A stretch of DNA of 64,000 bases, taken from IMG/VR virus record IMGVR_UViG_2648501187_000001, one strand, 5' to 3'. The position numbers were made by a program, and so were the translations under genes. This DNA comes from an uncultured virus (IMG/VR IMGVR_UViG_2648501187_000001). Its lineage: Duplodnaviria > Heunggongvirae > Uroviricota > Caudoviricetes. Positions 9,502 to 63,220 of this stretch are shown here, piece by piece (the first letter of the stretch is position 1; each line of letters starts with the position of its first letter). Under the pieces are notes generated by a model. It had not been told where the DNA came from, did no database searches, and was given only the letters and a program-made list of their open reading frames with translations.

Positions 9502-9840
9502 GTTCGAATCCTTTCTTCCGGAGTCACCCCCATTCTAGGAGGGGGGATGCGTGTCCGGCGGCCCCGGTCCGGAATCCGGCCCATAGACCCGCCGGCATGC
9601 CGTATGCGTCCCGGACGCATCTATCTTGACGGGCATGTCCACGCCCGGCCAACTGCCCGCCCCAGGCATGCCCGTGCTCGCCTCCCCGGCGGCATTGCCC
9701 GGCTGCGCGCCCACGATGCGCGTCGCGTCGGCGCGCATCGTCGAACGGCATCGGCATGATCCCGGCGTCCGAGTCTCATACGATCCGGACGGGCGCATGG
9801 ACGAATCCTACAGGCCTGCCCTGCCGCCCGTACGCCTTTC

Positions 9841-12800
9841 CTAGTCGAGCACCCACCCGTCGTCCGGATCCGCGGCGACGCTCACCGTCGCATCCCCGTC
9901 CGGGGCGGGCGTCTGGTCGACGACGCCCACCGGTTTCGGCCTGGCCGGCATGAGATCCGACCAGTCGACCGGCGTCGCGTCCGGCACGCCCGCCATGCGG
10001 GCCCGCACGTCCGCGTTCGGACCGCACCACCAGCATTGCACCATCTGCAGGCCGCGCCCCATGCGCTCGTACACGCCCCTGCCTTTCGGCATGCCGCCCG
10101 AATCCATGGCCTGGCGGATCAGCCGGTTCCCCTCCCTCTCGTTCTGCGCGCTCACGTTCCCCCTCACGTCGCCCGCGCCGACGAACAGGCGGCCCATCTG
10201 GTTCTTCGCCAGGCCCGCGTCCGGCAAAGCGTCCATGCTCTCCGCCTTCATCATCTGCGAGCCCAGGATCATCGTGATCCCCTGGGAGCGATGCTGGGTG
10301 AGGATATGGCTCACCGACGCGCCGATCCGGCGTTTCAGCCGGTCGCGCCACGCGTCCATCATGATCATGTTGTCCACATCCGGGTCGCCCGTCGGATTCC
10401 GTTTCACGCCCTTCGACAGTTCCAGGAGGCTCACGAACTCGTCCAGAAACACGATGATGCGCGGCGGGCGGATGCCGGCCGGCAGCATGTCGATGTTCTC
10501 CGCCCCATGCTCCTTCTGCAATGCGAGCCGGCGCCGCCCCTCACGGTCGATCCAGTCGAGCATGGCCGCGCACTCGTCCAACCCGGTCGCGAACCCGGAC
10601 AGTTTGCCTTTCACGGGCGCGAAATCGTTGCCCGACTTCACCGGATCGCCGACGAACGCCTGCCAGCCGTGCAACAGGGCGGCGTTCACCAGGGTGACGG
10701 CCGCGCTCGTCTTGCCGCTCATCGTCTGCCCGGTGATCAGCAGATGCGCCGTGTCATGAGGGTCGAACAGGACCGTGCGCCCGTCGTCGCCGACCGCGAA
10801 CGGCAGGCCCGTCGAATCCGGGTCCGCGCCCATGAGCCGCCAGTCCGCCATGACCCGTTCCGGCAGCGGATCCATGCGTGACAGGAGGAGCGTGAGCGGC
10901 GCATCTCCCCTGACGCGGCGCGCGTACATGAACCCGCCGGTCGCGCGGAACGCGTCCAGACGGCCCATCGCGCCCTCCACGCCCAGGCCGGCCGGCAGGG
11001 CGAACGACGCCTTGACGAGCCGGCCGCCCCCGTCCTCGACGCGCAGCGTGGTCACGGGACGCCCGTCCGCGCCCGTCGCCTTGGACGCGGCCCACGCCTC
11101 GTCCAGGCGCAGCCTGATCATCCGGTCCATGTCCCGGCGGGAACGCCAGTCGCGCGCGTCCATGCTCGGCACGCCGCCCGCCCACAGGATCGCATGCCCC
11201 TGGTCGCGCCACTCCCACAGCGTCTCGTCCGCACCCATCGCGCTTTTCAGACGTTCCTGCACGCGACGCAGATCCGACGCGGTCAGCCCGCCCTCCAGGC
11301 GGATCGGGATACGCCATGCGCTGTTCGCGCCCACGCCCAACTGGCTTGCGGCCCCGACCGTGGGCGGCGTTTTCAGGGCGAGCGCGCACGCGTGCGACAC
11401 GATGACGCGCGCCAGGAGGCTGCGCGCCCTCGAATCGCCGGTCAGGGCGCGCAGCGTGTCCGGCATCCCCCGGTTGTCGTCCGTGTTGGGCGCGTGCACG
11501 AACTGGAGGAGCCGGGAGCGGGGCCGGTCTCCTTCCAGCCAGGGCAGGAAGTCCGCGATCGGGCTTTCCGAGAACGCGCCGCGCAGGTTCGAACGCATGT
11601 AGTCGGCGGCCGTGTACGCGCGGCCTATCGCCATCGCGTACGATGTGATCCGCCAGCCGGCCGGATCGGCGATGGTTTCCGTGTTGTCGTGGAAGATCGT
11701 TTCGGGGGCGGGCAGTTTCACGGGTTCCAGGCCGCCCGACATGATCGATTTCAACCGTTTGTCCTCGCCGATCAGCCGCATGTAGCGGACCGGATCGTCA
11801 TGGCGGCGGGTCAGCGTGTCGGACATGAGCGGCCGCATCGTCTTCGGATCCCAGTCATAGGAGTCCCAGTTCGCGTCCACGCTCACCCAGCCGTGCCCGC
11901 CGCCCGGATCCGCGGTCACCAGTATGTTCTCCGTGTTCATCCAGTCGCCGAACGCGCCGGGCGCGGCCCCTTTCAGCCAGTCGCGGGAGATCATGTCCCA
12001 GTCGGCGTTCGACCCGTCGATGCGGAACGAGCGGACCGCGGGCCTGCCGTCCCGGGACGCGACGATCCTCACGTCCGTGACACGTCCGGGGAACGCGCCG
12101 TACATGGCGCCCATGCGCGTCTCGTCGACCATGAGGCGCGCTTCGAGCATCGTCCGGTCGGCGAGCAGGTCCGCCGGGTCGGGCGCGTCCGCGGGGCAGA
12201 CGGCGACCGTGACCCGCGTCCTGTCGCGCCCCATGAACGCGAAGCCCGCAAGCATGCCGTCCGCCTGGGTGACGGGCGTGAACGTCTTCATGGTCGAATC
12301 GTTCGCCCATTGGACGGCGTTCGACACGTCCAGTTGGAAGACGCGCGACCCGTCCGCGCCGACACGCGTGTCGTGCGCGCCGCCGGGCAGCGCGTCGAAC
12401 GGCGGCTTGTTCAGGCCCGCGATCCACCGGCCGACCATGAGGCGGCTCTCATAATCCGTATGGAAGCGTTTCCGGTTCGCCCGCCATGCGGGCCACATGG
12501 GGGCGGCGGCGCCCAGGCACATGAGCATGGGCATGGGCCACCAGACGCCCGTCCACGCGGATTGGAGGACGCCGAGAACGAGTCCCGCGCCCAGTCCCGT
12601 GAGTATCCACGGCAGCCGTTTCCTCGCCCATCTGACGCGCATGCGCCGCATGTTCGAATCCAGGCCGCGCACGGTGCAGGTCATGTCGCGGCGCTGCTGG
12701 CCGACGCCCATGACGGCCAGCCAGCAGGCCAGCATGTCCGCGCCCGCCATGATCGGACGCCACGTGCCGGACGCGGACGATATCCACCCGTAGTCGAGGC

Positions 12801-13134
12801 ATGCGATCGCCATGGCGGGCATCGCGTCCGCATACAGGGGAGACAGCCCGCCGTCGAGCCAACGGGAGGCGCGACGCCATGACGCCTCCATGCGCCGCTC
12901 CCTCTCGTCCCCGGGCGCCGGCCGGCCGTCCAGACCCTTGCCGGACAGGACGGGACGCCGGGCCGTCAGACGGGCCGCCAGCCAGCCCAGGCACCAGACG
13001 GTCATGCCCGGCAGACGGAACGCGGTCAGCATGAGCGCGACGACGAGCGTGAGGACACGGACGAACGCGTGCGGGCTGGACGGTTCGTCCCGTTTCGTTT
13101 TCGGCCGCGACCGGCCGTTCCGACGGTATGCCAT
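9841..13134 (-). CDS. FtsK/SpoIIIE (TcpA-like) DNA translocase/coupling ATPase
   Basis: N-terminal TM helices; HLLITGQTMSGKT Walker A; IIVFLDEF Walker B; RSQGI motif. Confidence 0.85.
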   Translation of the reverse strand: MAYRRNGRSRPKTKRDEPSSPHAFVRVLTLVVALMLTAFRLPGMTVWCLGWLAARLTARRPVLSGKGLDGRPAPGDERERRMEASWRRASRWLDGGLSPLYADAMPAMAIACLDYGWISSASGTWRPIMAGADMLACWLAVMGVGQQRRDMTCTVRGLDSNMRRMRVRWARKRLPWILTGLGAGLVLGVLQSAWTGVWWPMPMLMCLGAAAPMWPAWRANRKRFHTDYESRLMVGRWIAGLNKPPFDALPGGAHDTRVGADGSRVFQLDVSNAVQWANDSTMKTFTPVTQADGMLAGFAFMGRDRTRVTVAVCPADAPDPADLLADRTMLEARLMVDETRMGAMYGAFPGRVTDVRIVASRDGRPAVRSFRIDGSNADWDMISRDWLKGAAPGAFGDWMNTENILVTADPGGGHGWVSVDANWDSYDWDPKTMRPLMSDTLTRRHDDPVRYMRLIGEDKRLKSIMSGGLEPVKLPAPETIFHDNTETIADPAGWRITSYAMAIGRAYTAADYMRSNLRGAFSESPIADFLPWLEGDRPRSRLLQFVHAPNTDDNRGMPDTLRALTGDSRARSLLARVIVSHACALALKTPPTVGAASQLGVGANSAWRIPIRLEGGLTASDLRRVQERLKSAMGADETLWEWRDQGHAILWAGGVPSMDARDWRSRRDMDRMIRLRLDEAWAASKATGADGRPVTTLRVEDGGGRLVKASFALPAGLGVEGAMGRLDAFRATGGFMYARRVRGDAPLTLLLSRMDPLPERVMADWRLMGADPDSTGLPFAVGDDGRTVLFDPHDTAHLLITGQTMSGKTSAAVTLVNAALLHGWQAFVGDPVKSGNDFAPVKGKLSGFATGLDECAAMLDWIDREGRRRLALQKEHGAENIDMLPAGIRPPRIIVFLDEFVSLLELSKGVKRNPTGDPDVDNMIMMDAWRDRLKRRIGASVSHILTQHRSQGITMILGSQMMKAESMDALPDAGLAKNQMGRLFVGAGDVRGNVSAQNEREGNRLIRQAMDSGGMPKGRGVYERMGRGLQMVQCWWCGPNADVRARMAGVPDATPVDWSDLMPARPKPVGVVDQTPAPDGDATVSVAADPDDGWVLD

Positions 13135-13198
13135 GCGCGCCGCCTATGCCGGCCCGCGCATAGGCGCCCCCCGCAGACGACCACGGAAAGGAGCCATC

Positions 13199-14473
13199 AT
13201 GGGCGTGGACAGGAACGGGAGGAGCCACAGGCCGAGCGGACTGCCGCAGGGGTATGCGGGCACGTTCGACAGGACGGGCGGGGATGCGGGCGGCGACGTG
13301 GCCCCGCCCGACCCGCTGATCGCCATGGCGAGCGAAAGCATGCGCATGCGCGCGCTGACCGACCATACACAGGTGAAAAGCGCGTCGGAGACGCGGGGCC
13401 TGCTCGACATGGCCGACCATGTCGAATACGGGCCGGACGGCGCGATCCTGTACGACGGGGACGGGAACATCCTGTTCCGTGAGGATCCGTCCGTGCCCGG
13501 ACTCGACTCGACGGTGATGCGGCACGATCCGAAAACGCAGGCCGCGGTTCGAGCCGCGTTCCAGGCGGACCTGGGCGAATACCCGGCCGCCGGCCGGCGC
13601 GCCCTGATCCGTGCCGCGAACCGGCATGCGAGCGCGTATTCACGGCGCCGCGCCATCGATTCGAGCCCGAACCGCAGGTATCTGCCCGCATCCACGATCG
13701 CGTCGAGCCTCGCCCGGCGTGCCGACCGGGACACGGCGGACCGGATCCTGCGCGAACTGCACTACGAGGACGCGAACGCGAGCGCGAACGTGATCCGCGC
13801 CGGCTACCCGGACGACAAGGCGAGCGCGTTCAAATTCATCAACTACACGAAGATCCGACGCGACAAGGACGGCAGGCCGGTGCACGGCGAATGGACCGAC
13901 CGGGACGGGAAGCGCAAGAGCGGGATCATGCCCGAACCGCGGGGGGCCGCGTCCCGCGCCTACCTCAGGATGCTGTACCAGCCGACCGACGGCGTCCCCT
14001 CGAAGCAGGAGTGCGACCGCATGGCCCACGTGTTCGCCCGCATGGACGATCCGGACATCCAGGCCAGGGCGTTCTGGAACCTGTGCCACGGCAACGCGAA
14101 CCCGGACGACCGGTGGGACGACGTGAACTTCGAAATCGGGCTGATCGGCCAGAAAAGGACGGACAGGGGCGGCGCCGCGCTGCTCGACGCGTACAGCCGG
14201 CGCAAAGGCGGTCAGGGCAACGCGGCGCGCATGCTCGCCTACAGGAAATGCATGAGCCGTGACGCGGCCGTCCGTTTCCTCGCCATGGACGACATGGACG
14301 CGCGGCGCGCGCACACCCAGTACACGCGCCGCCGTCGCAGCAGGACGACGGGGCTCATGGAGGACGTGAAGCCGAAACGGCTCACCGAGATGCGCGCGTT
14401 CATCCACGCGGTCTACCAGATCCCCAACCGTGAGGTCGACGAGTACCGGGCCGTACGGGACGCGGACGCGTGA
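13199..14473 (+). CDS. Hypothetical protein with N-terminal DRNxRxHR-GLPQG-AGTF tag
   Basis: SD GGAAAGGAG precedes ATG 13199; the N-terminus is shared with ORFs at 50344, 57821 and 47979. Confidence 0.75.
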   Translation: MGVDRNGRSHRPSGLPQGYAGTFDRTGGDAGGDVAPPDPLIAMASESMRMRALTDHTQVKSASETRGLLDMADHVEYGPDGAILYDGDGNILFREDPSVPGLDSTVMRHDPKTQAAVRAAFQADLGEYPAAGRRALIRAANRHASAYSRRRAIDSSPNRRYLPASTIASSLARRADRDTADRILRELHYEDANASANVIRAGYPDDKASAFKFINYTKIRRDKDGRPVHGEWTDRDGKRKSGIMPEPRGAASRAYLRMLYQPTDGVPSKQECDRMAHVFARMDDPDIQARAFWNLCHGNANPDDRWDDVNFEIGLIGQKRTDRGGAALLDAYSRRKGGQGNAARMLAYRKCMSRDAAVRFLAMDDMDARRAHTQYTRRRRSRTTGLMEDVKPKRLTEMRAFIHAVYQIPNREVDEYRAVRDADA

Positions 14474-14487
14474 CGATCATGGAAGAA

Positions 14488-14551
14488 AAGAGAGGGGCCG
14501 TCCGGTTCCCGCCTGCCCCGATGGGGTTGCGGGACCGGACGGCCCCTCTTC
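14488..14551. terminator. Inverted repeat between convergent genes
   Basis: AGAGGGGCCGTCCGGT ... ACCGGACGGCCCCTCT. Confidence 0.7.
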
Positions 14552-14569
14552 CTGTGCCGGAACGGCCCG

Positions 14570-14863
14570 TCATGCGACGGGTCGGGGTTCGGCGGGCTCC
14601 CAGTCCTCGCCGATCTCCTCCTCGTTGACCCAGTCGCGCTCCCACAGGGAGTAGCCGCCGGCCAGCGTGTATTCCACGCCGGTCAGGCCGTTCAGGTCGG
14701 CCACGTGCAACGCGTCCTCCTTGGACGCGCACCATGTGGCGTTCTGCGCGTCCGGCTCCCATGCGCCGTCCGTGCCGTCAAGGTCGGCGTCGTACAGCCA
14801 TGCGCCGTCCATATCGCGGCGCACCGCGTATTCGACGCCGCCCTTACCGTTCAATCGGACCAT
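14570..14863 (-). CDS. Small acidic hypothetical protein
   Basis: SD GAAAGGAAG; GCATAG box upstream at ~14909; protein-like composition. Confidence 0.65.
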   Translation of the reverse strand: MVRLNGKGGVEYAVRRDMDGAWLYDADLDGTDGAWEPDAQNATWCASKEDALHVADLNGLTGVEYTLAGGYSLWERDWVNEEEIGEDWEPAEPRPVA

Positions 14864-14908
14864 GTCGTCTTCCTTTCGTCCATGATTGATGCCGTTTTCC
14901 GAAGCCCG

Positions 14909-16615
14909 CTATGCGTCCCCGCGCAGCATGCGCGTGGATTCGGCGAGCATGAGGGCCGCGAGGCGTCCCGCGGCGCGGATGCGTTCCAGCCGGGCGTCCA
15001 GCGTCCCCTCCCCGTCCCCGTCATGGTCGAGGATGAGGCGCAGCACGCGTTCCACGTCGCGGGCGAGCGTGGAGTCCAGCCACGCGAACAGGGCGGCCCG
15101 TTCCGGCCGGCCTTCGGCCAGTCCGGGCACGTCGGGCACGATCGGCCCGTACGCCTTGCGCGCCGCCGCCCATTGGACGCGCAGCAGTTCCAGCGCGATC
15201 GGGCGGATGCGTTCCGTATGCCCGTCGGCGAGCAGGCCGGCGCGGGCGAACGTGAGCGTCAGCTGCGTGAACCCGTATCCGGCGACGTTGAACCCGTGTT
15301 CCGACCAGGACGGGTCGTACGGCCTGCGCTCCGCGAGCGTCACCTCCGGCACGGGCTCCGGCTCGGATGCGGCGGATTCCGGCGCCTGTTCCGGCACGGG
15401 TTCCGGCTTCGCCTCCGGATCCGTCGCGGGTTCCGTCCCGGATGCGACGGGTTCCGGCTTCGGCGTCGGATTCCACGGATCCTCGCCCGGACCCGAACCC
15501 ATCCACCGGTCCATCGTCTCACGCCCCTGCGGCGTCTCCCACGGATCCGGCGCCGGGGCGGGCAGGCCCGCGCGAGGACGCGCCACGGCCTCCCCCTCCG
15601 GCCCCGAGGGCTTCGCCTCCGCGACGGGGGCGTCCAATCCGAACAGATCAAGCATGACGGGCTCCTTTCCCACATGATTCCAACCGCCGGTATGCGTCCC
15701 CGCGAACCCGACGCGCGGATCGTCCGGACCGACGCTCGACAAGGCGTCCCGCCGGCCCGACGGTATGATCCGGGCCAGCGGGCAGGCGCGCGCCACCGGA
15801 CACCAGGCGCACAGGCCCGACGGCCTCAACGGCAGGACGCCGTCCCCGTCCGCGCCCGTCGCGCGCACAATCCCGTCCCATGCATGATGGAAACGGGACA
15901 CGGTGTCCGTGCACGCCGCATCCGACAGGTCCGCGGCCGCCCACGCATGATGCTCCACATACACGTCACGCGCCGCACGCACCTCGCACACGCCGTTCGC
16001 CTCCAGCATCAGCCGGTACAGGCGCAGCTGGTCCGCATGCCGCCGGCGGGCGTCACGGTACTTCGGCGTGCCGCCCGTCTTCCAATCCACCACCGTGCCG
16101 TCCACGTCACGATAGTCCACGGCGCCACGCAACGGGATGCCGTCGACATCCGCCTCCAGATCCTGCTCCAACGCGGCCGGCTCCAACACGCGGCCCAACG
16201 CGTCCGTCAAAACGAACCCCGACAGCTTCGCCGCCGCGGCCCCCACCCAATCATCCTGCGTGGCGGGCGAACCGTCCGGCATCGCCACGCCGGGCGGGAT
16301 CGGCTCATCGCCCCAACCCCGCGCCCTCCACCGCTCGTACTCCACGCCGACGCCCCTGGCGCACAGGGCCCGCCAATCCGGGGCGACACGATCCGGCGTA
16401 CGGCAGGCAAGCTCCAACGCGGCGTGCGCGATGCCGCCCAGGACGAGCGGACTGCCCCACAGACGGGGCTTCGGCATCAGCTTCTCCGCCGCCCAACGCG
16501 CCGGGCACGACATCCACTTGTCCAACGCGCTGAACGACGCGTGCGAGGGACGCGCCAGACGCGCACGGGCGACACCCGCCCCCATATCGAACGTCATCAA
16601 CAGTTCATCACTCAT
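14909..16615 (-). CDS. PD-(D/E)XK (RecB/Cas4-like) nuclease fused in frame to a second acidic/Pro-rich domain
   Basis: SFSALDKWMSCPARW, LRGAVD, VVDWKTG, QLRLY and CAWCPVARAC (Fe-S-type Cys). Start is MSDELL at 16615; a separate SD+ATG lies at 15655. Confidence 0.8.
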   Translation of the reverse strand: MSDELLMTFDMGAGVARARLARPSHASFSALDKWMSCPARWAAEKLMPKPRLWGSPLVLGGIAHAALELACRTPDRVAPDWRALCARGVGVEYERWRARGWGDEPIPPGVAMPDGSPATQDDWVGAAAAKLSGFVLTDALGRVLEPAALEQDLEADVDGIPLRGAVDYRDVDGTVVDWKTGGTPKYRDARRRHADQLRLYRLMLEANGVCEVRAARDVYVEHHAWAAADLSDAACTDTVSRFHHAWDGIVRATGADGDGVLPLRPSGLCAWCPVARACPLARIIPSGRRDALSSVGPDDPRVGFAGTHTGGWNHVGKEPVMLDLFGLDAPVAEAKPSGPEGEAVARPRAGLPAPAPDPWETPQGRETMDRWMGSGPGEDPWNPTPKPEPVASGTEPATDPEAKPEPVPEQAPESAASEPEPVPEVTLAERRPYDPSWSEHGFNVAGYGFTQLTLTFARAGLLADGHTERIRPIALELLRVQWAAARKAYGPIVPDVPGLAEGRPERAALFAWLDSTLARDVERVLRLILDHDGDGEGTLDARLERIRAAGRLAALMLAESTRMLRGDA

Positions 16616-16637
16616 ACGCGCGCTTATGCGTCCCCCG

Positions 16638-16702
16638 AAAAAAAACAGGCCGGGGCCCGCCGGCCCCCTCCCGGAAAAGGAAGGGGACGACGGGCCCCGG
16701 CC
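16638..16702 (-). terminator. Rho-independent terminator
   Basis: GGCCGGGGCCCG ... CGGGCCCCGGCC hairpin followed by a T run on the minus strand. Confidence 0.6.
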
Positions 16703-16717
16703 CATGTCGCCGCCGGT

Positions 16718-17035
16718 TCAGGCGGCGAGCCTCCACGCATGGTCCAGGCACTCCCACAAGGGGCAGTACCGGCGCGACGCCCACTCGAACCCCCTGAACG
16801 GGGGGACGGTCAGTCGCGGGTCGATCCGCGCGAGCTCCCTGTCGCACAACGGGACGCCCAGACGGCGCAGCCACGGCAGACGCGCCATCGCCGCCCTCAC
16901 CATGCGCGCGTCATACGAGCCGTCCGCCGACGGCCGGGGCAGCGCATGATGTTCGGACAGGAGCGGGAGGAACGATTCCGGCACGTCCAAAAGACGCGCC
17001 GTCTGGCCCGCGGCCAGCATGCCCGGCATCACCAT
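16718..17035 (-). CDS. Small putative helix-turn-helix protein
   Basis: MLAAGQTARLLDV resembles an excisionase/MerR-type HTH start; translationally coupled to the upstream ORF. Confidence 0.5.
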   Translation of the reverse strand: MVMPGMLAAGQTARLLDVPESFLPLLSEHHALPRPSADGSYDARMVRAAMARLPWLRRLGVPLCDRELARIDPRLTVPPFRGFEWASRRYCPLWECLDHAWRLAA

Positions 17036-17604
17036 CAGGCCAGCCCCCTGACCGCATCCACATCCAGGCCGGGCGCGGCGGACGCCAGCGCGTACTGCAG
17101 GTCGGTGGGCGACGAGCCCGTCGGCTTGACCGAACCCGCCAGATCCGGGTCGAGCGCGAGCGCGACCCTGGCGGCGCGCCTGACGCCCGCCATGTCCTTC
17201 TCCAACGCCTGGCCGACCAGGATCGCGCGTCGCAGCGGATCCGTCTCGTCATGCCATGCGACAAGCAGGCCGACCGGCGCCGACAGGCCGCCCTTCAACA
17301 CGGCCAGGGCGAGACGGTCCGCATCGTCCGCGTCCACGTCCGCGGCGGACGCGACCACGCGGCGCGTCCGCCCGTCGTCCAGCAGGGCCAGCGCCTCGCG
17401 CGCCTGACGCACCCGATCCGCGGTCCACGCGAACGCGGGGCGCGCGCGTTTCGGACGCGGCCTCGCCTCCACGGCCTTCGGCTCCGCCGGCCCCGCGTCG
17501 GACTGCGGTTCCGGCGCGGCCGGAACATCCGGCGCGGGTTCCGGCACGGGTTCGGGCTGCGGGTCGAAACCGTTCCAACCCCGATCACCATCGAACATCG
17601 ACAT
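17035..17604 (-). CDS. Hypothetical protein
   Basis: SD GAAGGAG; GCATAG box at ~17649. Confidence 0.7.
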   Translation of the reverse strand: MSMFDGDRGWNGFDPQPEPVPEPAPDVPAAPEPQSDAGPAEPKAVEARPRPKRARPAFAWTADRVRQAREALALLDDGRTRRVVASAADVDADDADRLALAVLKGGLSAPVGLLVAWHDETDPLRRAILVGQALEKDMAGVRRAARVALALDPDLAGSVKPTGSSPTDLQYALASAAPGLDVDAVRGLA

Positions 17605-17969
17605 GCTATTGCTCCTTCAATCCAGGGACGGATATCGTCACGCCGCCCCTATGCGCGTGCGACGCATCATGCCACGCCCCGTCGAACAGACGGCGGCGCG
17701 GCCCCCGGGCATCCGGCGCAAGCCGCGGACGAAAACGAAAAAAAGGAGACAAAGAAAAGGAAAAAGAGAAAAAGAGCAAAAGAGGAAAACACGATACGAC
17801 ACCATCCCATCAGCCATCAGAAAAAAAAGACAGGACACCGACACCCAGGAACACACGCGACGGACACCACACCATAACGGAAACCACACCACAAAACAGC
17901 ACCACATCAAGGGGAGGGATCGTTTTCCCTTGCAAAAAACCGGGTTTCGGGGGCGCATAGCCGCCCGCC

Positions 17970-18761
17970 ATGACTCAGGCGGCTATCACGTTCGTGACCG
18001 GCGGATCCGGCGGCATCGGCAAAAGCACCGCCGCCCGCATGCTCGCCCACGCGCTCGGCTCCGCCCGGCTGCGCACCGCGCTCGTCGACGGCAACCCCGG
18101 ACAGCAGTCCCAACGCGCCTGGCTGAACGTCCCCGATTCGAAGGCGTTGGAATACGCGTTCGTCGACGGATTGCAGTCCGCGCTCGTCCGGCCCCGGGAC
18201 ACGGGCGGCATGTTCGCGCTGCTCGCCGGACCCGCCGACCCGCATTCCAGGGACATGACCCACGACTACCTGGAAGCGGTCATCGGACTGCGGGCCATGT
18301 GCGACATGATCGTCGTGGACGCGGACCGTGTCGACGGGCGCCTGTGGGACGATCCCGCTTCGTTCGCGGGCGGCGTCATGCGGCCCATGGTCGAGACGGG
18401 CGGGGCGCGCATCCTGTTCAGGATCGGCCAGTCCGGCTCGCAGACGGACGACGGGCTCGCCGCATTGGACGCGATCCGCCGGCCGGACCGGATCCGCGCG
18501 GTGGCGGTCGCGCCTCCCGGCGTGAAGCCGTGGCCGGCCCGCCGCTGGCGGGCATTGCTCGACGGGCTCGCCGAATACGGGGGCGTGGACGAATGGGATG
18601 AGGCGAGCCGCCGGCTCATCGACTCGCATGCGTGCGGATGGGCGCATGGCATGGAACCGGATTGGCTGCGCGGCGCATGCATATGGATGGGCGTCGACCC
18701 TCATGCATGGAACCCGGCGGAGGGGGGACGATCATGGCTGCCATGGTCCCGGACGCGATGA
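17970..18761 (+). CDS. parA: ParA/MinD-family ATPase
   Basis: TGGSGGIGKST deviant Walker A; ALVDGNP; DMIVVD. Confidence 0.75.
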   Translation: MTQAAITFVTGGSGGIGKSTAARMLAHALGSARLRTALVDGNPGQQSQRAWLNVPDSKALEYAFVDGLQSALVRPRDTGGMFALLAGPADPHSRDMTHDYLEAVIGLRAMCDMIVVDADRVDGRLWDDPASFAGGVMRPMVETGGARILFRIGQSGSQTDDGLAALDAIRRPDRIRAVAVAPPGVKPWPARRWRALLDGLAEYGGVDEWDEASRRLIDSHACGWAHGMEPDWLRGACIWMGVDPHAWNPAEGGRSWLPWSRTR

Positions 18762-19168
18762 GCGGCGTCCAGGCGGCGCGGGACGCGAACCTGATACGCG
18801 CGGAGGCCTTGGTCGCGGTGCGCGCGAAGGCGGAGCGCGGGGATTTCACGCATGCCCTGTCCGACCTGCTGCGTGACGCGTTGGGATCGAGGCCGCTGCT
18901 GCGCCTGCACATCTGGCGTGTCGAACAGGCCGCGTTCGACAATCGGACGGCGACATGCAAACGGCATGCGCGCATCGCGGCCGGATGGTGCGGGGTGGAC
19001 GGGGCGCGCGCCGGATCCCTGACGCTCGCCTGGCTGTTGGACGAGCGGACGGGCGGCGCGAGGCTCGCCGCATGGCTGCTCGCCATCAGCCTGGACATGC
19101 GTGACGCGCATGGCGGGCACGCGTTCCGCCTGTCCGGCCCGGACCCGTTCGCGCATGTACGCTCCTAG
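18758..19168 (+). CDS. Hypothetical protein coupled to parA
   Basis: ATGA overlap with the parA stop. Confidence 0.6.
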   Translation: MSGVQAARDANLIRAEALVAVRAKAERGDFTHALSDLLRDALGSRPLLRLHIWRVEQAAFDNRTATCKRHARIAAGWCGVDGARAGSLTLAWLLDERTGGARLAAWLLAISLDMRDAHGGHAFRLSGPDPFAHVRS

Positions 19169-20115: not shown

Positions 20116-20163
20116 CGGCCTCCTTTCACGCGCGCGTATGCGTTCCGGGGCATAGGGGCGGGC

Positions 20164-28376: not shown

Positions 28377-28391
28377 CGCATACCCGACCCC

Positions 28392-53202: not shown

Positions 53203-53242
53203 GGGCCCCGTGTATGCGTCCGCCGGGGCGGGCGTCGGGCCC

Positions 53243-53532: not shown

Positions 53533-53558
53533 CGCATACAAAACGGGCCGGAAAACTA

Positions 53559-53656
53559 TACAATATTGTAAAGGTCGGAGGTGAGGCTTTACAATATTGT
53601 AAAGCCCCCGGCGTCGCGAAGCCCCGGGGAGCCCGGCTGTGCAATATCGTAAAGCC
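53559..53656. promoter_or_regulatory. Three copies of the TACAATATTGTA operator palindrome
   Basis: 53559-53570; a perfect 22-mer at 53585-53606 identical to 35842-35863; a degenerate copy at 53636-53656. Confidence 0.7.
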
Positions 53657-53765
53657 CGCGCATGCGGCTCCACGGCATCGCGAAACCCCGGAGAGCCCGG
53701 CGAAACGGATCGGAGGCTGATTTAGATATTTAATATCTGTTCATATCCATGCTATACTATTCAAT

Positions 53766-54374
53766 ATGACCTATTTCAGCCTGTCCGAGTTCCTTGAACG
53801 CACCGGCGTGAGCGCTTCGACCGCCTATCGGGCGGAACAGCGGGGCGTGATCAGCCCGGCGCGCACGGACGGCGGGCATCGACGCTACTCGCAGGAGGAC
53901 GTGGCGAAACTGCTGGGATTGCAGCATCAGAACCCGGAGAAGAAATGCGTCATCTACTGCCGGGTCAGCAGCGCCGGGCAGAAGAACGACCTCGCCGACC
54001 AGCGAAAGGCGATGATGGATTTCGCCACGGCGCGCGGCTACGTGTACGAGGTGTGGGAGGAGATCGGCGGAGGCATGAACCTCAACCGCCCCAAGTTCCT
54101 GAAACTCGTCAACGGGATCATCGACGGTGAGATAGGCGTCGTGATCGTGGCACACAAGGATCGGCTCGCCCGGTTCGGGTTCGACCTCGTGAAGAACCTG
54201 GCCGACGAGTACGGGGCTCAGATCATCGTCGCCAACCGCACGGACATGAGTCCGCAGCAGGAGATGGTGGAGGATCTGATGAGCATCATCCACACCTACT
54301 CGTGCCGCCTATACGGTCTGCGGAGGTATAAAACAAGCCGGGACCTCCTCGGCGACGGGAGCGGGGAAGACTGA
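53766..54374 (+). CDS. tnpA: IS607 transposase (MerR HTH + serine recombinase)
   Basis: RTDGGHRRY, IYCRVSS, DRLARFGF and RLYGLR motifs; leaderless behind TGcTATACT (-10 at 53753-53758). Confidence 0.95.
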   Translation: MTYFSLSEFLERTGVSASTAYRAEQRGVISPARTDGGHRRYSQEDVAKLLGLQHQNPEKKCVIYCRVSSAGQKNDLADQRKAMMDFATARGYVYEVWEEIGGGMNLNRPKFLKLVNGIIDGEIGVVIVAHKDRLARFGFDLVKNLADEYGAQIIVANRTDMSPQQEMVEDLMSIIHTYSCRLYGLRRYKTSRDLLGDGSGED

Positions 54375-55564
54375 TGCAACGCACGTTCAAGACCCGGTTG
54401 AAGGTCAACGACGTCGAGTCGAACATCCTCGCCCAATGGTGCGGGGTGAGCCGCCTCGCCTACAACGTGTGCCTCGACCAGTGGAACAGGGACTACGAGA
54501 ACGGGGCGAAACACAACTATTATTCGATCAAGAAATGGTTCAACTCCGTCAAACGGGAGATGTTCCCCTTCATCACCGGCGTCAGCAAATGGGTGCCCGA
54601 AGCGGCCATCAAGGATCTCGACACCGCGTTCAGGAACATGTACCGGCATACGGCCAAGCACCCGCGATTCCACAAGAAGGGCGTCCGCGACTCGTTCCGC
54701 ATCGACGGCTCGGTGATAGCCGTAAGCGGGAAAAACCTGAAACTGCCGAAAGGCCTATGCCTGAGGCTTATGGAAAGGTTCAGATATGAGAATCAGGTGA
54801 ACAAGATCAACAACGCGACCATCAGCCGCAAGGCGGGCTACTGGTTCGCGTCCATATCATGTGACGTCGGAGACCCCGCGCGCGAAAACCAAGGCGCGGG
54901 CATCCTCGGCGTCGACGTGGGCGTGAAAAGCCTCGCCGTCTGCTCGGACGGCACGGTCATCGACAATCCGAAGACCCTGTACCGGCGGGAGAAGCGGAAG
55001 AAGCACCTACAACGCATGGTGGCCCGCAAGCAGAAGGGATCCGACAACCAGCGCAAGGCCAAGGCGTTGCTCGCCAGATACGAGTATCGGACGGCCGTGA
55101 AACGCGAGGACTGGCTGCACAAGGCGTCCAGCCGCATCGCCCGGGCCAACCGGGTATGCTTCATGGAGGATCTCAACGTCAAGGGCATGCTCTCCAACCA
55201 TCATCTCGCGAAGGCCGTCTCCGACTGCTCGTTCAACGAACTGCACCGTCAGCTCGCATACAAGACCACGGTGCGCGAAATAGACCGATGGTGTCCGAGC
55301 AGCCAAACATGTTCCGACTGCGGCAGCCGGAAACCCATGCCTCTGTCCGAACGCGCCTACCGGTGCGAACAATGCGGCATGGTCATGGACCGTGATCTCA
55401 ACGCCGCATTGAACATACTCAACGTAGGGATGGCGAACTATCCCGAACTCATGCCTGCGGAGGATGACACCCCCGAAGCCACCGGCGCAGCCAGCCGGCA
55501 GGCGACGGCACCCGATGAAACAGGAATCGACCATCAAACACTGCACAAGAACAGGTTTGAATAA
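54374..55564 (+). CDS. tnpB: RNA-guided endonuclease TnpB
   Basis: RuvC GVDVG, MEDLNV and DRDLNAA all intact; Zn finger CSDC/CEQC. Confidence 0.95.
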   Translation: MQRTFKTRLKVNDVESNILAQWCGVSRLAYNVCLDQWNRDYENGAKHNYYSIKKWFNSVKREMFPFITGVSKWVPEAAIKDLDTAFRNMYRHTAKHPRFHKKGVRDSFRIDGSVIAVSGKNLKLPKGLCLRLMERFRYENQVNKINNATISRKAGYWFASISCDVGDPARENQGAGILGVDVGVKSLAVCSDGTVIDNPKTLYRREKRKKHLQRMVARKQKGSDNQRKAKALLARYEYRTAVKREDWLHKASSRIARANRVCFMEDLNVKGMLSNHHLAKAVSDCSFNELHRQLAYKTTVREIDRWCPSSQTCSDCGSRKPMPLSERAYRCEQCGMVMDRDLNAALNILNVGMANYPELMPAEDDTPEATGAASRQATAPDETGIDHQTLHKNRFE

Positions 55565-57347: not shown

Positions 57348-57434
57348 CAATGGGCTCCTTTCCGATCATGGTGGGCCGCCCCACGATGGTTGCGGTCCGA
57401 CGGTTCCCGTCGGCGTCCGGTATGCGTCCCCGGC

Positions 57435-57821: not shown

Positions 57822-58522
57822 TCCAGCTCCTTCCGGTCGTCGTCCCGCATGCTATGCGCCCGCCCGTCCGGCCACGCGTAGCCGCGCAGGCGGGCGGGAA
57901 AATATTTCAGGCGCGACCGGTACAGCAGCCACGTGCGCAGGAGGGTCGGTATCCCGTCCGACTTGCGCAGGTTGTGGCGGGCGCACAGGCCGACCAGATT
58001 GTGCCGGTCCGTGGCCCCGCCCCTCGACCACGGGTAATGGTGGTCCATATGCTCGATCGGCCCCCGGCATCGCAGCAGGCCGAACAGCCGCCGATGCTCG
58101 CACCGGCCGCCCGCCGCCATGCGGATCCACGTCCGGTCCGCGTCCGAGAACAGGCGGACCGGATCCCGGTCGAACGGGTTGTCGGGCTTCGGCATGCGCA
58201 GGTTCGCGAGGGCCAGGAGCGCGATCAGGACGACGGCCGCGGCCAGAATCGGGACGAGGCGCGCGCCCGACGCGTCCCGGATCTGACGGAGCATGCGCGC
58301 CAGCCCCGCCGCACGCTCCCCCGCATGCCACGGGTCCACGGCCGTGTCCGCCGCGTATTCGGGCGAATCCTCCGCCAGGCCGGTCCTGAGCCGGCGGGCC
58401 AGGAGCGTCCAGTACGCGCCCGCCAGGCCGCCCGCGCCGGCCAGCGCGCCCGCCGCGTACGAGGCGACGCGGAGCAGACGGTACGCCTCCCAGGCGCGGC
58501 GGATCGTGCGCCGCACGCTCAC
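57818..58522 (-). CDS. Membrane-anchored HNH endonuclease
   Basis: RDPVRLF, RCEH..C and DHHYPWSRGGAT..NLVGLCARHNLRKS motifs; two hydrophobic segments. Confidence 0.82.
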   Translation of the reverse strand: MSVRRTIRRAWEAYRLLRVASYAAGALAGAGGLAGAYWTLLARRLRTGLAEDSPEYAADTAVDPWHAGERAAGLARMLRQIRDASGARLVPILAAAVVLIALLALANLRMPKPDNPFDRDPVRLFSDADRTWIRMAAGGRCEHRRLFGLLRCRGPIEHMDHHYPWSRGGATDRHNLVGLCARHNLRKSDGIPTLLRTWLLYRSRLKYFPARLRGYAWPDGRAHSMRDDDRKELE

Positions 58523-59423: not shown

Positions 59424-62380
59424 GCGCCCCTCCTATGCCGCGCCGTGTTCGCCCGCTGTTCGGCGAGGAACCTCCGGTAGTTCGCGTCGTTGTTCTCGTC
59501 TGATATGTCGCCCCGCTGTTCGGCGCGGCTGAACCGGCGCTCCTCCGTGCCGCGCGCCCGTTCGCGTTCCAGGAGCACGCGCGTCGGCACGCGCGCCGGC
59601 TCGGGTATGCGGATCGGGCGGGCCGGCGTGGCGGCGCGCCCGGCCGCGGGCCGGTTCGTCCGGCCGCGCCGCCGCATGTCGTTCAGGAGGCGTTCGCCGA
59701 CGCGCATCAGCGTCCGCTCGTCCAACCCGTTGTTCACGGTCGGCTTGTTGCCTTTCCCGAAGCCGGCCAGGGGGGCGTTCTTCGACGGGGCGAGGGGCCG
59801 GGCGGGGGCGTCGGGGCGCGCCCCCGGACGGCCGGCCGGGGGCCGGGACGCGTCCGCCCGGCTCGCGGGGCCGTTCGCGGCGCGCATGCGCGACTGCGGG
59901 GAACCCTGGGCGAACGCGGGCCGGGACGGGGTTTTCGGCCCGTTCTTCGCCTGCTCGTGGATGTCCTCGGCGAGCTGTCTGATGTCCTCGGCCGCCGTGT
60001 CGGAGCGCATGATCTTCCTCACCTGGCTTTCGAGTTCGTCGCCCTGCAGGGATTTCGCCCATTCGGCGCGCACCTTGTTCTCGTATCGGACGGTCGCCAG
60101 CCGGTTCTCGTCCGGGGTGGGACGGTTCGCGAGATATTCGGTTCTCGCCCGCGCCTCCTTGTCTCTGGCGGCGATGGCCGCCTTGTCCGCCTGGCTGGGC
60201 CCGTGCCCGCCGGCCGACCGGCCGCCGCCCGTCATGCCGTGCATGGCCGGCCCCATGCCCGCCTTCACCCCGTTCATCGCGGTCCCGGCGAACCCGCCGC
60301 GCCCACCGTCCTTCATGGCCATGCCCGCGGAGCCGAGCGCCATGGCGGCCGAGCCGCCGGTCGCCACGCACACGCCCGCCGCGATCGCGGCGCCCGCGGC
60401 CATGGTCAGGCCCCGTTTCATGCCGTTGCCGAACCCGGCGAGCTGGGCGAGGCCGGGCAGGCTGAACGGGTTGCCGATCCTCCACACCTTCACGCACAGG
60501 AGCTTCACGGCCTTCACGTACAGGATCGGCAGGAAGATCGCCGCGACGAGCAGGCCCGCGACCCCGCCCTGCGTGTTCCCGTCCGCGTCGACCAGGCCCA
60601 GGAGGGCCATGCCGATGTTGGTGAACAGGATGCCGAGACTGCCGAACAGGGCGACGACCGTGGGGCCCGCCACCCATGCGAGCATCTGGACGAGCGCGTT
60701 GCCGACCGCCCGCCGGCCCGCGTCCGGGCTGACGGCGAGCAGGAGCAATGCGAGGAACAGGCCGAGCGCGGCCAGGCAGGCGACGAGCATGCTCAGCGTC
60801 TGCAGGCTGCCGCACAGCAATCCCCAGACGATCAGGTTCACCTCGCCGGCCACGCCGTTCAGGAACCCCTCCGACAGGGTGCCCAGGGAGCTTTTCCCGT
60901 GCTGCTGGTCGATGAGCCGGTAGGCGGCCGTGTTCTGCTGCATGTTCCCGCCGCCGTTCGTGAACACGAGCTGCTGCCAGCCGCTGGTCGCCGTGTTCAC
61001 GTCGAACAGGAGCGTCAGGTTCGCGATCTCGCTGCGCTTGTTCGTCTTGTCCGAATCGTCGGTGACGGGCTTCGCCTTGTCCGCGTCGCCGCGCGTCACA
61101 TAATACGTGTCGTTCCCGTCCGGGTCGATGCCGGTCAAAGCCGCCTCGCAGGAGGATGCGAGCGGCCCTCCCGCTTCCCGGCTGACGACGCCCGCCGCGG
61201 AGCCCGCCAGGGGTTTCCTCTCGATCGCGCCGACGAACTTGAAGCCCGCGCGCGCCTTGAACGAGCCGTCCGCATCCACCTTGCACACGTTCCACAGCAT
61301 GACCCACCGGTCGAGCATCTGGGTGGTGGAATCCGCGGGCAGTTTCAGCGTGTACTGGACGCGCAGGTCCTTCGCCGTGCTCATCATGGTCGGCCAGAAC
61401 GCGATCGCGTTCTGCTGGACGGCGTTCAAGCCGCCCATGCCCGCGGTCGTGATGTCGCTCATCGACTTCGCGTCCGCGCCCGCACGGTATTCCAGGATCC
61501 GGCAGAACACGTTGCTCGCGTTCGCGCCCGCCCCGTAGGAGCCGCGCATCCACACGCGCAATCCGGTCTCCTCCCACATGAGGTTCACGCCGTCCGACAT
61601 GGCGTTCCGGTTCTTGCGGGCCGCCTGGTTCAATACGGACGTGTACCGTCGGCAGGACGCCATGTTCGACTGGTCGGACGGGTCGGCGACCAGTCCGCCC
61701 GTCTTCTCCAACGCGCCGTTGAACGCCTTCGTGACGCCGCCGCCCGCCTCGTCGACCACGCTTTTCGCCGTGGACACCAGCCAGTACGGGGTGCCCGGGT
61801 ACGCGTCCGTCGGATGGGCGGCGCTCGTCGCGCCCATCATGTAGAACAGGCCGAGCGCGAGGAACAGGCAGACGAGCCGTCTGGCGAGCACGCCCGCCCC
61901 CTGCCGCATGTAGACGGCGACGACGCCCGCCACGATGGCGACGAGGACGGGGATGGCGAGGAAGAAGCCGATGGTCGCCGGATCGAACAGCGCCTTGTAG
62001 ATGCCGGCCGCCATCGTGTTCGCGGCCGGGCCGGCCAGGGCGATCGCCTTGTCCGACCCGGCCAGGACGCCGCCGTCGGCCAGGTTCGCGGCCGCCGCCC
62101 ACATGCCGTTGCCCAACGCGTTCATCAGGTGGCCGAACGAATTGCCGACGGCGTCCGTGAAGTTGAGCATGTTCACGATCTTCGACGCGAAATCCTCGCG
62201 GCTGGTGCCCGATATGGTGCCCGTCGCCCACCGGTCGACGGGCAGGCAGTCGAGCGCCCTGCAGACCACGTCCGTGTTGAGCGTGTCCGCGCTGGCGGGC
62301 GCGCCCGGCGTGACGCCCGCCCCCTGCCCGCCGCCCGCGTCCTGCGTGGCGAGCACGATCATGTCCGACATGAATCCCAT
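59420..62380 (-). CDS. Polytopic T4SS membrane protein (VirB6/TcpH-like)
   Basis: Multiple TM clusters, a Cys-containing extracellular loop and a charged C-terminal tail; SD GAAGGAGG. Confidence 0.65.
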   Translation of the reverse strand: MGFMSDMIVLATQDAGGGQGAGVTPGAPASADTLNTDVVCRALDCLPVDRWATGTISGTSREDFASKIVNMLNFTDAVGNSFGHLMNALGNGMWAAAANLADGGVLAGSDKAIALAGPAANTMAAGIYKALFDPATIGFFLAIPVLVAIVAGVVAVYMRQGAGVLARRLVCLFLALGLFYMMGATSAAHPTDAYPGTPYWLVSTAKSVVDEAGGGVTKAFNGALEKTGGLVADPSDQSNMASCRRYTSVLNQAARKNRNAMSDGVNLMWEETGLRVWMRGSYGAGANASNVFCRILEYRAGADAKSMSDITTAGMGGLNAVQQNAIAFWPTMMSTAKDLRVQYTLKLPADSTTQMLDRWVMLWNVCKVDADGSFKARAGFKFVGAIERKPLAGSAAGVVSREAGGPLASSCEAALTGIDPDGNDTYYVTRGDADKAKPVTDDSDKTNKRSEIANLTLLFDVNTATSGWQQLVFTNGGGNMQQNTAAYRLIDQQHGKSSLGTLSEGFLNGVAGEVNLIVWGLLCGSLQTLSMLVACLAALGLFLALLLLAVSPDAGRRAVGNALVQMLAWVAGPTVVALFGSLGILFTNIGMALLGLVDADGNTQGGVAGLLVAAIFLPILYVKAVKLLCVKVWRIGNPFSLPGLAQLAGFGNGMKRGLTMAAGAAIAAGVCVATGGSAAMALGSAGMAMKDGGRGGFAGTAMNGVKAGMGPAMHGMTGGGRSAGGHGPSQADKAAIAARDKEARARTEYLANRPTPDENRLATVRYENKVRAEWAKSLQGDELESQVRKIMRSDTAAEDIRQLAEDIHEQAKNGPKTPSRPAFAQGSPQSRMRAANGPASRADASRPPAGRPGARPDAPARPLAPSKNAPLAGFGKGNKPTVNNGLDERTLMRVGERLLNDMRRRGRTNRPAAGRAATPARPIRIPEPARVPTRVLLERERARGTEERRFSRAEQRGDISDENNDANYRRFLAEQRANTARHRRGA

Positions 62381-62795: not shown

Positions 62796-62799
62796 GATC

Positions 62800-63153
62800 C
62801 TACAGTCCGAACACCTGGGAGATGACGTTCAACACGATCTGGAACAGCATGGCGACCAGTCCGGCGGCGAACGGGAGGATCTGGGAGGGCAGGATGCCGC
62901 ACAGGCCGAGCGTGATGCCCGCGCAGCACCATCCGACCGTGCCTCCCCCCTGCAGCGCCTGCCCGATCTGCGTGGACGGCCACCATTTGCGCAGGACGAG
63001 CAGCACGACGCAGGTGATGATCACGACCGCGCCGAGCAGGACGAGCAGGGTCGCGAGCGCCGCGTTGCCCGTCACAAAGCCGCACAGTTTCGCCACGCCG
63101 TCCATGATGGGCCGCACGATCTGGGGTGCGGCGGCGACTTCCACGCTTCGCAT
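62800..63153 (-). CDS. Small hydrophobic protein (VirB2/TcpD pilin-like)
   Basis: Three hydrophobic segments; SD GGAAAGGA; first gene of the T4SS membrane operon. Confidence 0.5.
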   Translation of the reverse strand: MRSVEVAAAPQIVRPIMDGVAKLCGFVTGNAALATLLVLLGAVVIITCVVLLVLRKWWPSTQIGQALQGGGTVGWCCAGITLGLCGILPSQILPFAAGLVAMLFQIVLNVISQVFGL

Positions 63154-63178
63154 GGCTTCCATCCTTTCCTTCCGACGT

Positions 63179-63220
63179 CATGATGCACGCCCCTATGCGG
63201 CATAGGGGGCGTGCATCATG
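63179..63220. promoter_or_regulatory. Near-perfect palindrome with divergent GCATAG boxes
   Basis: CATGATGCACGCCCCTATGC G GCATAGGGGGCGTGCATCATG. Confidence 0.75.

Follow-up and report, generated by a model that had tools for sequence, protein, structure and literature searches.

We analysed a 64,000-nt stretch of DNA, recorded in IMG/VR as an uncultured virus of the Caudoviricetes (IMGVR_UViG_2648501187_000001) and referred to here as the window. Its bases from 9.5 to 64 kb, with a GC content of 66-75%, encode a conjugative element whose genes include those for a VirB4-like ATPase (AAA_10), an FtsK/SpoIIIE-like coupling protein, a lysozyme/CHAP hydrolase, a DUF2637 protein, ParA, a PIF1/RecD-like helicase, a DnaN-like clamp, a single-stranded DNA (ssDNA)-binding protein and C5 and N6/N4 DNA methylases, and which carries an inserted IS607. 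The nearest genome, G001 (2.39 Mb, ~60% GC as measured in 200 kb of control DNA), matched the window at C1:1,137,058-1,204,630 with an identity of 88-100%, and the element was judged by GC content and motif density to span ~1.10-1.245 Mb of this genome. The match of known Bifidobacterium longum plasmids to the window was confined to one surface-protein gene. Throughout the element, a short box with the consensus (G/A)CGCATA(C/G) precedes gene starts in gene orientation, either at a nearly fixed distance from the ATG or at the head of a leader. The boxes (core CGCATAS, where S is C or G) that lie close to a start codon were located as follows.

13144-13149, minus strand: GCATAG, 9 nt 5' of ATG 13134 (FtsK/SpoIIIE-like protein, 1097 aa)
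16624-16629, minus strand: variant GCATAA, 8 nt 5' of ATG 16615 (PD-(D/E)XK nuclease)
17954-17960, plus strand: CGCATAG, 9 nt 5' of ATG 17970 (ParA-like protein)
20150-20155, plus strand: GCATAG, 8 nt 5' of ATG 20164 (789-aa protein)
24732-24738, plus strand: CGCATAG, 10 nt 5' of ATG 24749 (lysozyme/CHAP hydrolase)
26974-26987, both strands: back-to-back box pair, CTATGCG followed by CGCATAG, each 9 nt from its ATG (26964, minus; 26997, plus)
28377-28383, plus strand: CGCATAC, 8 nt 5' of ATG 28392
32807-32813, minus strand: CGCATAG, 9 nt 5' of ATG 32797 (VirB4-like protein, 1382 aa)
35485-35491, minus strand: CGCATAC, 8 nt 5' of ATG 35476 (PIF1/RecD-like helicase)
36468-36474, plus strand: CGCATAC, 8 nt 5' of ATG 36483 (oligoribonuclease-like protein)
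45271-45277, minus strand: CGCATAC, minus member of a divergent pair, 7 nt 5' of ATG 45263
45289-45295, plus strand: CGCATAC, plus member of the same pair, 7 nt 5' of ATG 45303 and 56 nt 5' of ATG 45352
47679-47685, minus strand: CGCATAC, 8 nt 5' of ATG 47670
47516-47522, minus strand: second box for the gene starting at 47670, 7 nt 5' of an in-frame ATG
49697-49703, minus strand: CGCATAC, 8 nt 5' of ATG 49688 (C5 DNA methylase)
50201-50206, minus strand: variant GCATGC, 8 nt 5' of ATG 50192
50328-50334, plus strand: CGCATAG, 9 nt 5' of ATG 50344 (359-aa protein)
53212-53218, minus strand: CGCATAC, 9 nt 5' of ATG 53202 (N6/N4 DNA methylase)
59433-59438, minus strand: GCATAG, 9 nt 5' of ATG 59423 (253-aa protein), with GGAGG inside the spacer

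The following boxes lie further upstream and head a leader or a gene with an uncertain start; CGCATAS was also found heading leaders at positions 9602, 15690, 38402 and 41145.

13157-13163, plus strand: 35-nt leader with GAAAGGAG, ATG 13199 (424-aa protein)
14909-14915, minus strand: 45 nt to ATG 14863
17649-17655, minus strand: 44 nt to ATG 17604
20136-20142, minus strand: 20-nt leader with AAAGGAGG, ATG 20115
22534-22540, plus strand: 5' of the DnaN-like clamp gene, the start of which is uncertain
24712-24718, minus strand: leader box divergent from the box at 24732
44273-44279, minus strand: 58 nt to ATG 44214 (surface protein, 983 aa)
48018-48024, minus strand: 38-nt leader
51958-51964, minus strand: 37-nt leader with ACGGAGG
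57420-57426, minus strand: leader box of the ssDNA-binding-protein gene
57852-57858, minus strand: 30-nt leader with GGAAGGAG (128-aa protein)
63193-63199, minus strand: leader box of the operon from 63162 to 59423, with a companion GCATAG at 63200

An earlier note on this DNA had listed 18 start-proximal and 17 leader-heading boxes. GCATA(C/G) was recovered at every one of its 7-10-nt spacers, counting the two variants that it had flagged, and CGCATAS lay at or within 1 nt of each leader-heading position. Among 40 open reading frames (ORFs) in the 9.5-64 kb region, 16 have a start-proximal box, 12 have an upstream box and 12, including the two of IS607 and some operon-internal genes, have none; the gene at 44346-45263 (minus strand), outside this set, is a 17th with a start-proximal box. 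The suggestion that nearly the whole backbone forms one regulon was somewhat overstated. Of the 46 strict boxes in 9501-64000, about 15 fall within genes or head no gene, and five boxes in window positions 1-9500 show no relation to gene starts.

Compared with shuffled and host controls, as the earlier note had proposed, the box was enriched together with its position and gene orientation. CGCATAS occurred 51 times in the window against 10.79 ± 3.09 (maximum 19) in 100 dinucleotide-preserving shuffles, and CGCATAS-N7-10-ATG occurred 15 times against 0.59 ± 0.70 (maximum 3). From 9501 to 64000, the spacing between GCATAS and the following ATG peaked at 8-9 nt (15 of 80 boxes), and an ATG at 7-10 nt opened an ORF of at least 60 aa for 18 of the 80 boxes, compared with 2 of 65 occurrences of a reversed control word. 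A motif-blind hexamer count over the 20 nt upstream of every ATG opening an ORF of at least 100 aa ranked GCATAG second in the window (11 observed, 2.6 expected), and the same count in the 200 kb of host DNA yielded Shine-Dalgarno-type words only and no GCATA word.

The spacer length was related to the box type, with 8 nt at 13 of 25 GCATAC sites and 9 nt at 27 of 41 GCATAG sites. Counting the A of the ATG as +1, the box is located at approximately -16 to -9 and its consensus places a CATA core at the -10 position. It is asymmetric, with palindromes found only where two divergent boxes abut. Position -2 was G in 46 of the 66 sites, and position -1 was a pyrimidine in 62, of which 53 were C. 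The pyrimidine is consistent with the Y-1/R+1 start-site rule that a Cappable-seq study gives for all of the species analysed there, together with 15% leaderless starts in Bifidobacterium pseudolongum (PMC4782308). The ATA core is present, and a T at the position equivalent to -7 was found at the background level (5 of 66 sites, and 3 of 11 in the AT-rich relative G183 described below). The absence of an evident -35 element, remarked on in the earlier note, held in sequence logos of three GC classes, where no informative column appeared 5' of the box, including the region ~17 bp upstream. Having neither a -35 element nor a T at -7, the box is not an ordinary -10 element of a housekeeping (group 1) sigma factor. 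The internal control named in the same note, IS607 tnpA, was confirmed to have TATACT and a 7-nt gap before the ATG at 53766, a host-type leaderless promoter; the CATAC-N of the box aligns with this TATACT at an equal 7-nt gap to the ATG.

In host genomes the box with its spacing, but not the box alone, was characteristic of the element. Bare RCGCATAS (where R is G or A) was not enriched genome-wide in G001 (342 against 389 for the reversed control), and the composite CGCATAS-N8-9-ATG occurred 57 times against 12 in the control. Of these 57 composites, 27 were within 1,097,872-1,244,918, that is, in 147 kb of 2.39 Mb or 6% of the genome, so that their density in the element was ~14 times that in the rest of G001. 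The composite was also found 67 times against 17 in G061, which has a 98%-identical VirB4 gene, and 30 times against 12 in G183, where a 28-kb part of one contig held 8 of the 30. Within the 200 kb of host DNA, long ORFs were not preceded by any promoter-like CGCATAS site, and start-proximal GCATAS matches looked random, the lone exception being one gene with GCATACT 7 nt before its ATG, an ordinary TATACT-like -10 element. This gene and the alignment with the IS607 TATACT would fit a box read by the host alone, either through its housekeeping sigma factor using CATASN as a poor -10 element or through a single host extracytoplasmic function (ECF) sigma factor, and no sigma gene was found in the element. 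However, the CGC of the box is conserved and a T at -7 is not, and both the 14-fold density and the emptiness of the host DNA argue against a host-only reading, which we regard as improbable.

The presence of a ribosome-binding site varied with the position of the box. Leader-type genes, with the box 20-70 nt upstream of the ATG, bear GAAAGGAG-type ribosome sites, and a match of at least 5 of 6 positions to AGGAGG was found at 8 of 13 leader-type starts against 2 of 16 box-proximal starts. In addition, some boxed intergenic regions are only 32-43 bp long. The divergent ATGs at 26964 and 26997 are separated by 32 bp in which the conserved content is the two back-to-back boxes only, and the pair at 45263/45303 and another pair in the relative G040 have the same construction. 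We considered that CGCAUAS might act at the RNA level, replacing the Shine-Dalgarno sequence on long transcripts as a landing site for an element-encoded translation factor or being cut by an RNase to give leaderless ends; start-associated sequences occur in mycobacteriophages of cluster K. Such a role would suit a box that occupies the Shine-Dalgarno place in genes that mostly lack one, and RNA reads do include the box 5' of some ATGs. It is nevertheless hard to reconcile with the same oriented box 20-70 nt upstream of genes with GAAAGGAG sites, where a role in translation is impossible, and it would require the promoters of divergent pairs 32-43 bp apart to lie inside the opposite gene. With no RNA-binding protein or RNase candidate identified, we give an RNA-level function little credence.

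The box was conserved in related elements. A family-level search found VirB4-like protein matches in 13 of 236 genomes, and the 34-60 kb around five of them were analysed. The element of G183, at 42-46% GC, adjoins a tyrosine integrase and has 18 genes in common with the window at protein identities of 27-52%. In G183, 11 long ORFs have CGCATAG or GCATAG 8-9 nt upstream of their ATG, among them counterparts of seven window genes with a start-proximal box (the FtsK-like, ParA, 789-aa, 459-aa MPFNPF, VirB4, 359-aa and 253-aa proteins), of which six are orthologues by comparison and the 459-aa gene was paired solely via its MPFNPF N-terminus. The GGGGA flank of the window boxes is lost in AT-rich G183, where the bare CGCATAG core remains. 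At the orthologue of the 359-aa gene, the box was found at 8-9 nt in all five elements. It lies 8-9 nt before the VirB4 ATG in the window, G183 and G048/G039; VirB4 of G040 has GGCATAG and 9 nt before a GTG, and that of G027 has the box at 18 nt. Members of the 359-aa family were located by a contig search in records of Bombiscardovia coagulans DSM 22924, Bifidobacterium cuniculi LMG 10738, B. canis GSD1FS, B. animalis subsp. animalis 2022B and B. castoris 2020B.

Other searches were largely empty. The VirB4 N-terminal domain, searched at class level in 401 genomes, matched only G001 and G429 (31% identity, without the box), so that the box was not found outside the Bifidobacteriaceae among the searched genomes. 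No related loci were obtained with the VirB4-like protein against genome contigs or with alignment A1 against viral contigs. The conservation also bears on whether the sites arose by chance, from base composition or by copying of promoter fragments. A few sites do have longer identical flanks, such as GACGCATACCCGGGGGCATG at several places in G001, but flanks differ at most sites, the shuffles never came near the observed counts and the box recurs at orthologous genes of a 45%-GC relative in which intergenic DNA is unalignable, leaving this explanation scarcely credible.

Taken together, we consider it rather probable, with substantial room for doubt, that the box is a -10-only promoter element private to conjugative elements of the Bifidobacteriaceae, yielding leaderless mRNAs. 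As a core -10-region element of a transcription programme specific to the element family, (G/A)CGCATA(C/G) would direct RNA polymerase to start 8-9 nt downstream. Where the ATG, preceded by C, is at that position, the mRNA would be leaderless, and where the ATG is 20-70 nt further on, the mRNA would have a leader with an ordinary Shine-Dalgarno site. This division fits the data in that ribosome sites follow the distant boxes and are mostly missing at the close ones. Reading would call for a dedicated factor, which the element itself most likely encodes, because the box has no -35 element and no T at -7 and is unused by host chromosomes. The earlier note had described the box as a -10 element before a leaderless start; its orientation and conservation agree with this in part, as does its position, which is the one that a -10 element would require for a start at the ATG. 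The promoter role, the start at the ATG and the identity of the reader are what we infer.

RNA was mapped as contigs and 667-nt depth bins for runs X1, X2, X21 and X22, of which X22 looks like DNA because it covers both strands evenly. Run X21 is stranded, and its convention was taken from the first mate lying opposite the gene on most genes. The bins on the two sides of the box at 36468 differed in plus-strand X21 RNA, which rose from 6.6 at 35677-36343 to 96.5 at 36344-37000. One X1 RNA contig had its end at 26965, which is 1 nt away from the start predicted at 26964.

Some of the promoter boxes have GTATGCAT arrays as neighbours. Two arrays of 300 bp are present in the window.

35500-35800: array of 11 ATGCATAC boxes, whose GCATAC core is common with the promoter box
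53240-53540: second array copy of 11 ATGCATAC boxes, ending in CGCATAC at 53533-53539

The 22 ATGCATAC boxes across both arrays are near-identical and one letter off ACGCATAC. Each array is a dyad, with ATGCATAC boxes around an AT-rich core, and G001 has at least eight copies. Just outside the arrays we also observed a perfect 16-bp palindrome, TTTACAATATTGTAAA, at 35845-35860, 53557-53572 and 53588-53603, with one copy having a single mismatch (0 expected by chance). The copies are upstream of two genes for XRE-type helix-turn-helix proteins, at 35940 and at 55561, of which the second has been split off by IS607. The palindrome is likely an operator of these repressors.

We searched for a protein that could read the box. 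In all-against-all BLAST comparisons, and within their sensitivity, the only families common to all five box-bearing elements were VirB4 and that of the 359-aa protein, which has three paralogues in the window.

50344-51423, plus strand: candidate reader, 359 aa, with a probable C-terminal helix-turn-helix
13199-14473, plus strand: paralogue of the candidate family, 424 aa
57438-57821: paralogue of the candidate family, 128 aa

The three paralogues have a common N-terminal K-G-x-P-x-G-x-x-G motif. The family is unrecognised by Pfam and small: a library of 1.84 billion proteins yielded 85 representatives at E ≤ 0.001. The final 55 residues of its proteins match tandem HTH_23/HTH_Tnp_1/Sigma70_r4_2 proteins and form a three-helix bundle in the predicted model (pLDDT 87), so that a C-terminal helix-turn-helix is probable. 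Co-linear, weak structural neighbours of the 359-aa model were an RsbN-BldN complex chain (residues 94-177), sigma-28 (184-311) and a sigma-F/anti-sigma-factor complex chain (315-359), with HrdB and sigma-B over 65-359. The VIA Z scores to HrdB, sigma-B, sigma-28 and the sigma-F/anti-sigma-factor and RsbN-BldN chains were 4.5-4.8, in the noise range, and in the ESM Atlas Sigma70_r2 clusters were reached at a score of 0.79, under the 0.9 line. Foldseek gave no match at E ≤ 0.001. A second-place Foldseek rank of sigma-B (E = 0.75), obtained with a first model of pLDDT 69, was lost with the better model (pLDDT 87) and serves as a lead only. As a separate observation, the N-terminal motif of the paralogues, D-R-N-N-R-x-H-R-x-x-G-L-P-Q-G-x-A-G-T-F, heads many otherwise unrelated short proteins in the same protein library, whose matches are limited to profile positions 1-43; the motif may be a transfer or docking signal.

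The earlier note had expected a dedicated sigma factor or polymerase, and none was found either by Pfam on ORFs or by a six-frame search with Sigma70_r2, methods that a very divergent sigma factor could escape. In each of five host genomes, the six-frame search gave exactly two matches, an RpoD-like and an ECF-like gene that both lie at a great distance from the element, and the sole RNA-polymerase-related Pfam match in the G183 region was RbpA (PF13397), outside the element. A YonO-like or other polymerase was rejected, as no large soluble ORF has a DxDGD motif; the 986-aa ORF, with ~8 hydrophobic segments, is probably part of a membrane channel for that reason.

Several results weigh against a private -10-only promoter. 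No sigma-factor or RNA-polymerase-subunit gene was detected by Pfam in 42 window ORFs, 73 ORFs of the G001 flank or 77 ORFs of the G183 region, and the similarity of the candidate family to sigma factors was insignificant (best Foldseek E = 1.4, VIA Z ≤ 5.9, hhalign E = 0.25 and 0.41), where profile comparison has little power, given that a control of host ECF against RpoD gave E = 0.068 with a flawed alignment. Among the relatives, no box precedes the VirB4 homologue in G037 or G429, the composite signal is absent from the G037 region, and by a crude count the composite only weakly exceeded the control in G048 (6 against 3), G027 (7 against 5) and G040 (5 against 3). As for RNA, X1 and X2 contigs and X21 reads run through the boxes at 35485-35491 and 36468-36474, with RNA running from the 300-bp array through the former into the helicase gene, and X2 contigs cover 17939-17970 across the box at 17954; 36372-36483 is likewise covered by a contig. 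Some of the reads mapped here stem from other array copies and a paralogous promoter. Pile-ups of X21 read beginnings or ends at 22996, 23000, 23242, 30981, 34249, 35547 and 35712 do not coincide with any predicted start. On balance, the RNA leaves starts at the ATGs neither mapped nor excluded, and it shows that some genes are also transcribed from upstream. Finally, the ATGCATAC boxes look like duplex protein-binding sites, and these would suit a regulator at least as well as a sigma factor.

The last two points would fit the main rival, in which the box serves as an operator. A helix-turn-helix protein of the element, perhaps from the 359/424-aa family, would bind duplex CGCATAS where weak host-read promoters have their -10/start region and so silence or co-ordinate the element, with the ATGCATAC arrays serving as high-density binding platforms. 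Operator sets that span a whole element are known elsewhere: IncP plasmids have those of KorA/KorB, and phage L5 has its stoperators. An asymmetric box of 7-9 bp is of the size read by a single helix-turn-helix such as the C-terminal 55 residues of the candidate may form, the 22 ATGCATAC boxes carry the GCATAC core in two 300-bp arrays adjoining box-bearing promoters, and RNA passes through some of the boxes. Yet, the box aside, there is no host-type promoter to repress, given no -35 element, background T at -7 (5 of 66) and intergenic regions of 32-43 bp, and nothing in an operator calls for a fixed 8-9 nt to the ATG, a C at -1 or missing ribosome sites. We therefore hold the operator to be unlikely, if deserving of serious attention. 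A guide for an FtsK/KOPS-like translocase and a methylation site were rejected, since they explain neither the gene orientation on both strands nor the fixed distance to the ATG.

Returning to a private promoter, the 359/424-aa family is the best candidate reader, unproven and to be taken as a lead only. Tentatively, and against our own considerable doubt, we propose that this family, with its N-terminal K-G-x-P-x-G-x-x-G, helical core and C-terminal helix-turn-helix, could be a private specificity factor that is sigma-like in role and unrecognisable by sequence. It would steer host RNA polymerase to -10-only CGCATAS promoters and so make dozens of transfer, replication and methylase genes leaderless. 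The C-type boxes would fall to one paralogue and the G-type boxes to the other, with the ATGCATAC arrays as loading or titration platforms.

Mobile elements with their own promoter word are known from plasmid- and phage-encoded sigma factors. Promoters of Bacillus subtilis sigma-E and sigma-K have a CATA -10 core (CATACA-T, CATA---TA) with a downstream T and a -35 element, and their readers are Sigma70-family proteins recognisable by Pfam. The box resembles them in the CATA core at -10 (it reads C-A-T-A-C/G), but it has no T at -7 and no -35 element, and no Sigma70_r2 gene is present in the element. The late promoters of phage T4 (TATAAATA) are -10-only and have gp55 as their reader, together with gp33 and the sliding clamp; their genes are not leaderless. 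They are likewise private to a mobile genome, and the element too encodes a DnaN-like clamp, whereas the sequence differs, no gp55 or gp33 homologue was detected and the box-proximal genes here would be leaderless. By analogy with T4, a link between the clamp and the box promoter would be pure speculation. AcaCD of IncC, SetCD of SXT/R391 and KorA/KorB of IncP-1 act at sites by or over sigma-70 promoters, at -35 or as palindromic operators. As in those systems, one short motif precedes many transfer, replication and maintenance operons, but here an asymmetric box without dyad symmetry is the sole conserved element of the promoter region. The L5 stoperators are 13 bp long with no fixed distance to the ATG, and the cluster K start-associated sequences contain a Shine-Dalgarno sequence; both share with the box many asymmetric, oriented sites in short intergenic spaces close to starts, and differ from it in that its spacing is fixed at 8-9 nt without a Shine-Dalgarno sequence.

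A case in the same genus is the Bifidobacterium megaplasmid pMP7017, in which a 34-bp motif overlaps the -10 element in 19 promoters and does not occur in bifidobacterial chromosomes (PMC10832533). That motif is likewise plasmid-specific and is AT-rich (AWAYATGYTATACTGAATATGTCCACATAAAAWA) with a canonical TATACT -10 element, mapped leaders and ribosome sites (PMC10832533); AWAYATGYTATACTGAATATGTCCACATAAAAWA fails to match the box consensus and belongs to another element family. Nothing on the box motif was found in the open-access literature, including papers on bifidobacterial integrative and conjugative elements and leaderless genes, a search that did not cover subscription journals. The box is known in kind, as the probable promoter word of a mobile element, and new in its sequence, its -10-only leaderless layout, its spread over Bifidobacteriaceae elements of 45-70% GC and in having no recognisable reader.

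We also observed other features of the element and its surroundings. The first 9500 bases of the window contain two giant surface-protein genes (Listeria-Bacteroides repeats and a CAP domain) at 63-68% GC and appear to be variable cargo, because identity to G001 was 88% at 2876-9621 compared with 99-100% at 1-1204 and 9809-20000. The VirB4-like protein (28652-32797, minus strand) has 1382 aa compared with 867-970 aa in relatives, and since these align to residues 1-470 and 1012-1380 only, ~550 of its residues appear to be an insert; residues 763-1013 of the insert have a 40%-identical copy in another G001 ORF of 1066 aa. IS607 is located at 53721-55564, between the array and the XRE-like gene at 55561, and consists of a serine recombinase and a TnpB-like OrfB. 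A short, abundant X21 RNA was found at 22996-23242 (depth 79 compared with ~4 nearby) with sharp ends at 22996/23000 and 23242; under the inferred library convention, it is antisense to the DnaN-like clamp gene. In G001, the flank of the window match at C1 ~1,100,000-1,137,000, within the presumed element, encodes WhiB-like, SecG-like, SecE-like, sortase, LemA, TPM-domain and primase-polymerase/DUF5906 proteins, with the WhiB-like gene of the element part beyond the window at L010:11878-12258. The extra Sec subunits are unusual cargo for a mobile element.

Bifidobacterial conjugative elements move genes among gut commensals. A seven-base promoter word that holds across hosts of 45-70% GC would define a complete regulon by sequence alone, and the box would mark leaderless genes and correct many start-codon calls. 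It would also offer an orthogonal promoter for Bifidobacterium engineering, and the factor that reads it, be it a hidden sigma-like protein or some global regulator, would sit among the unnamed genes of the element.

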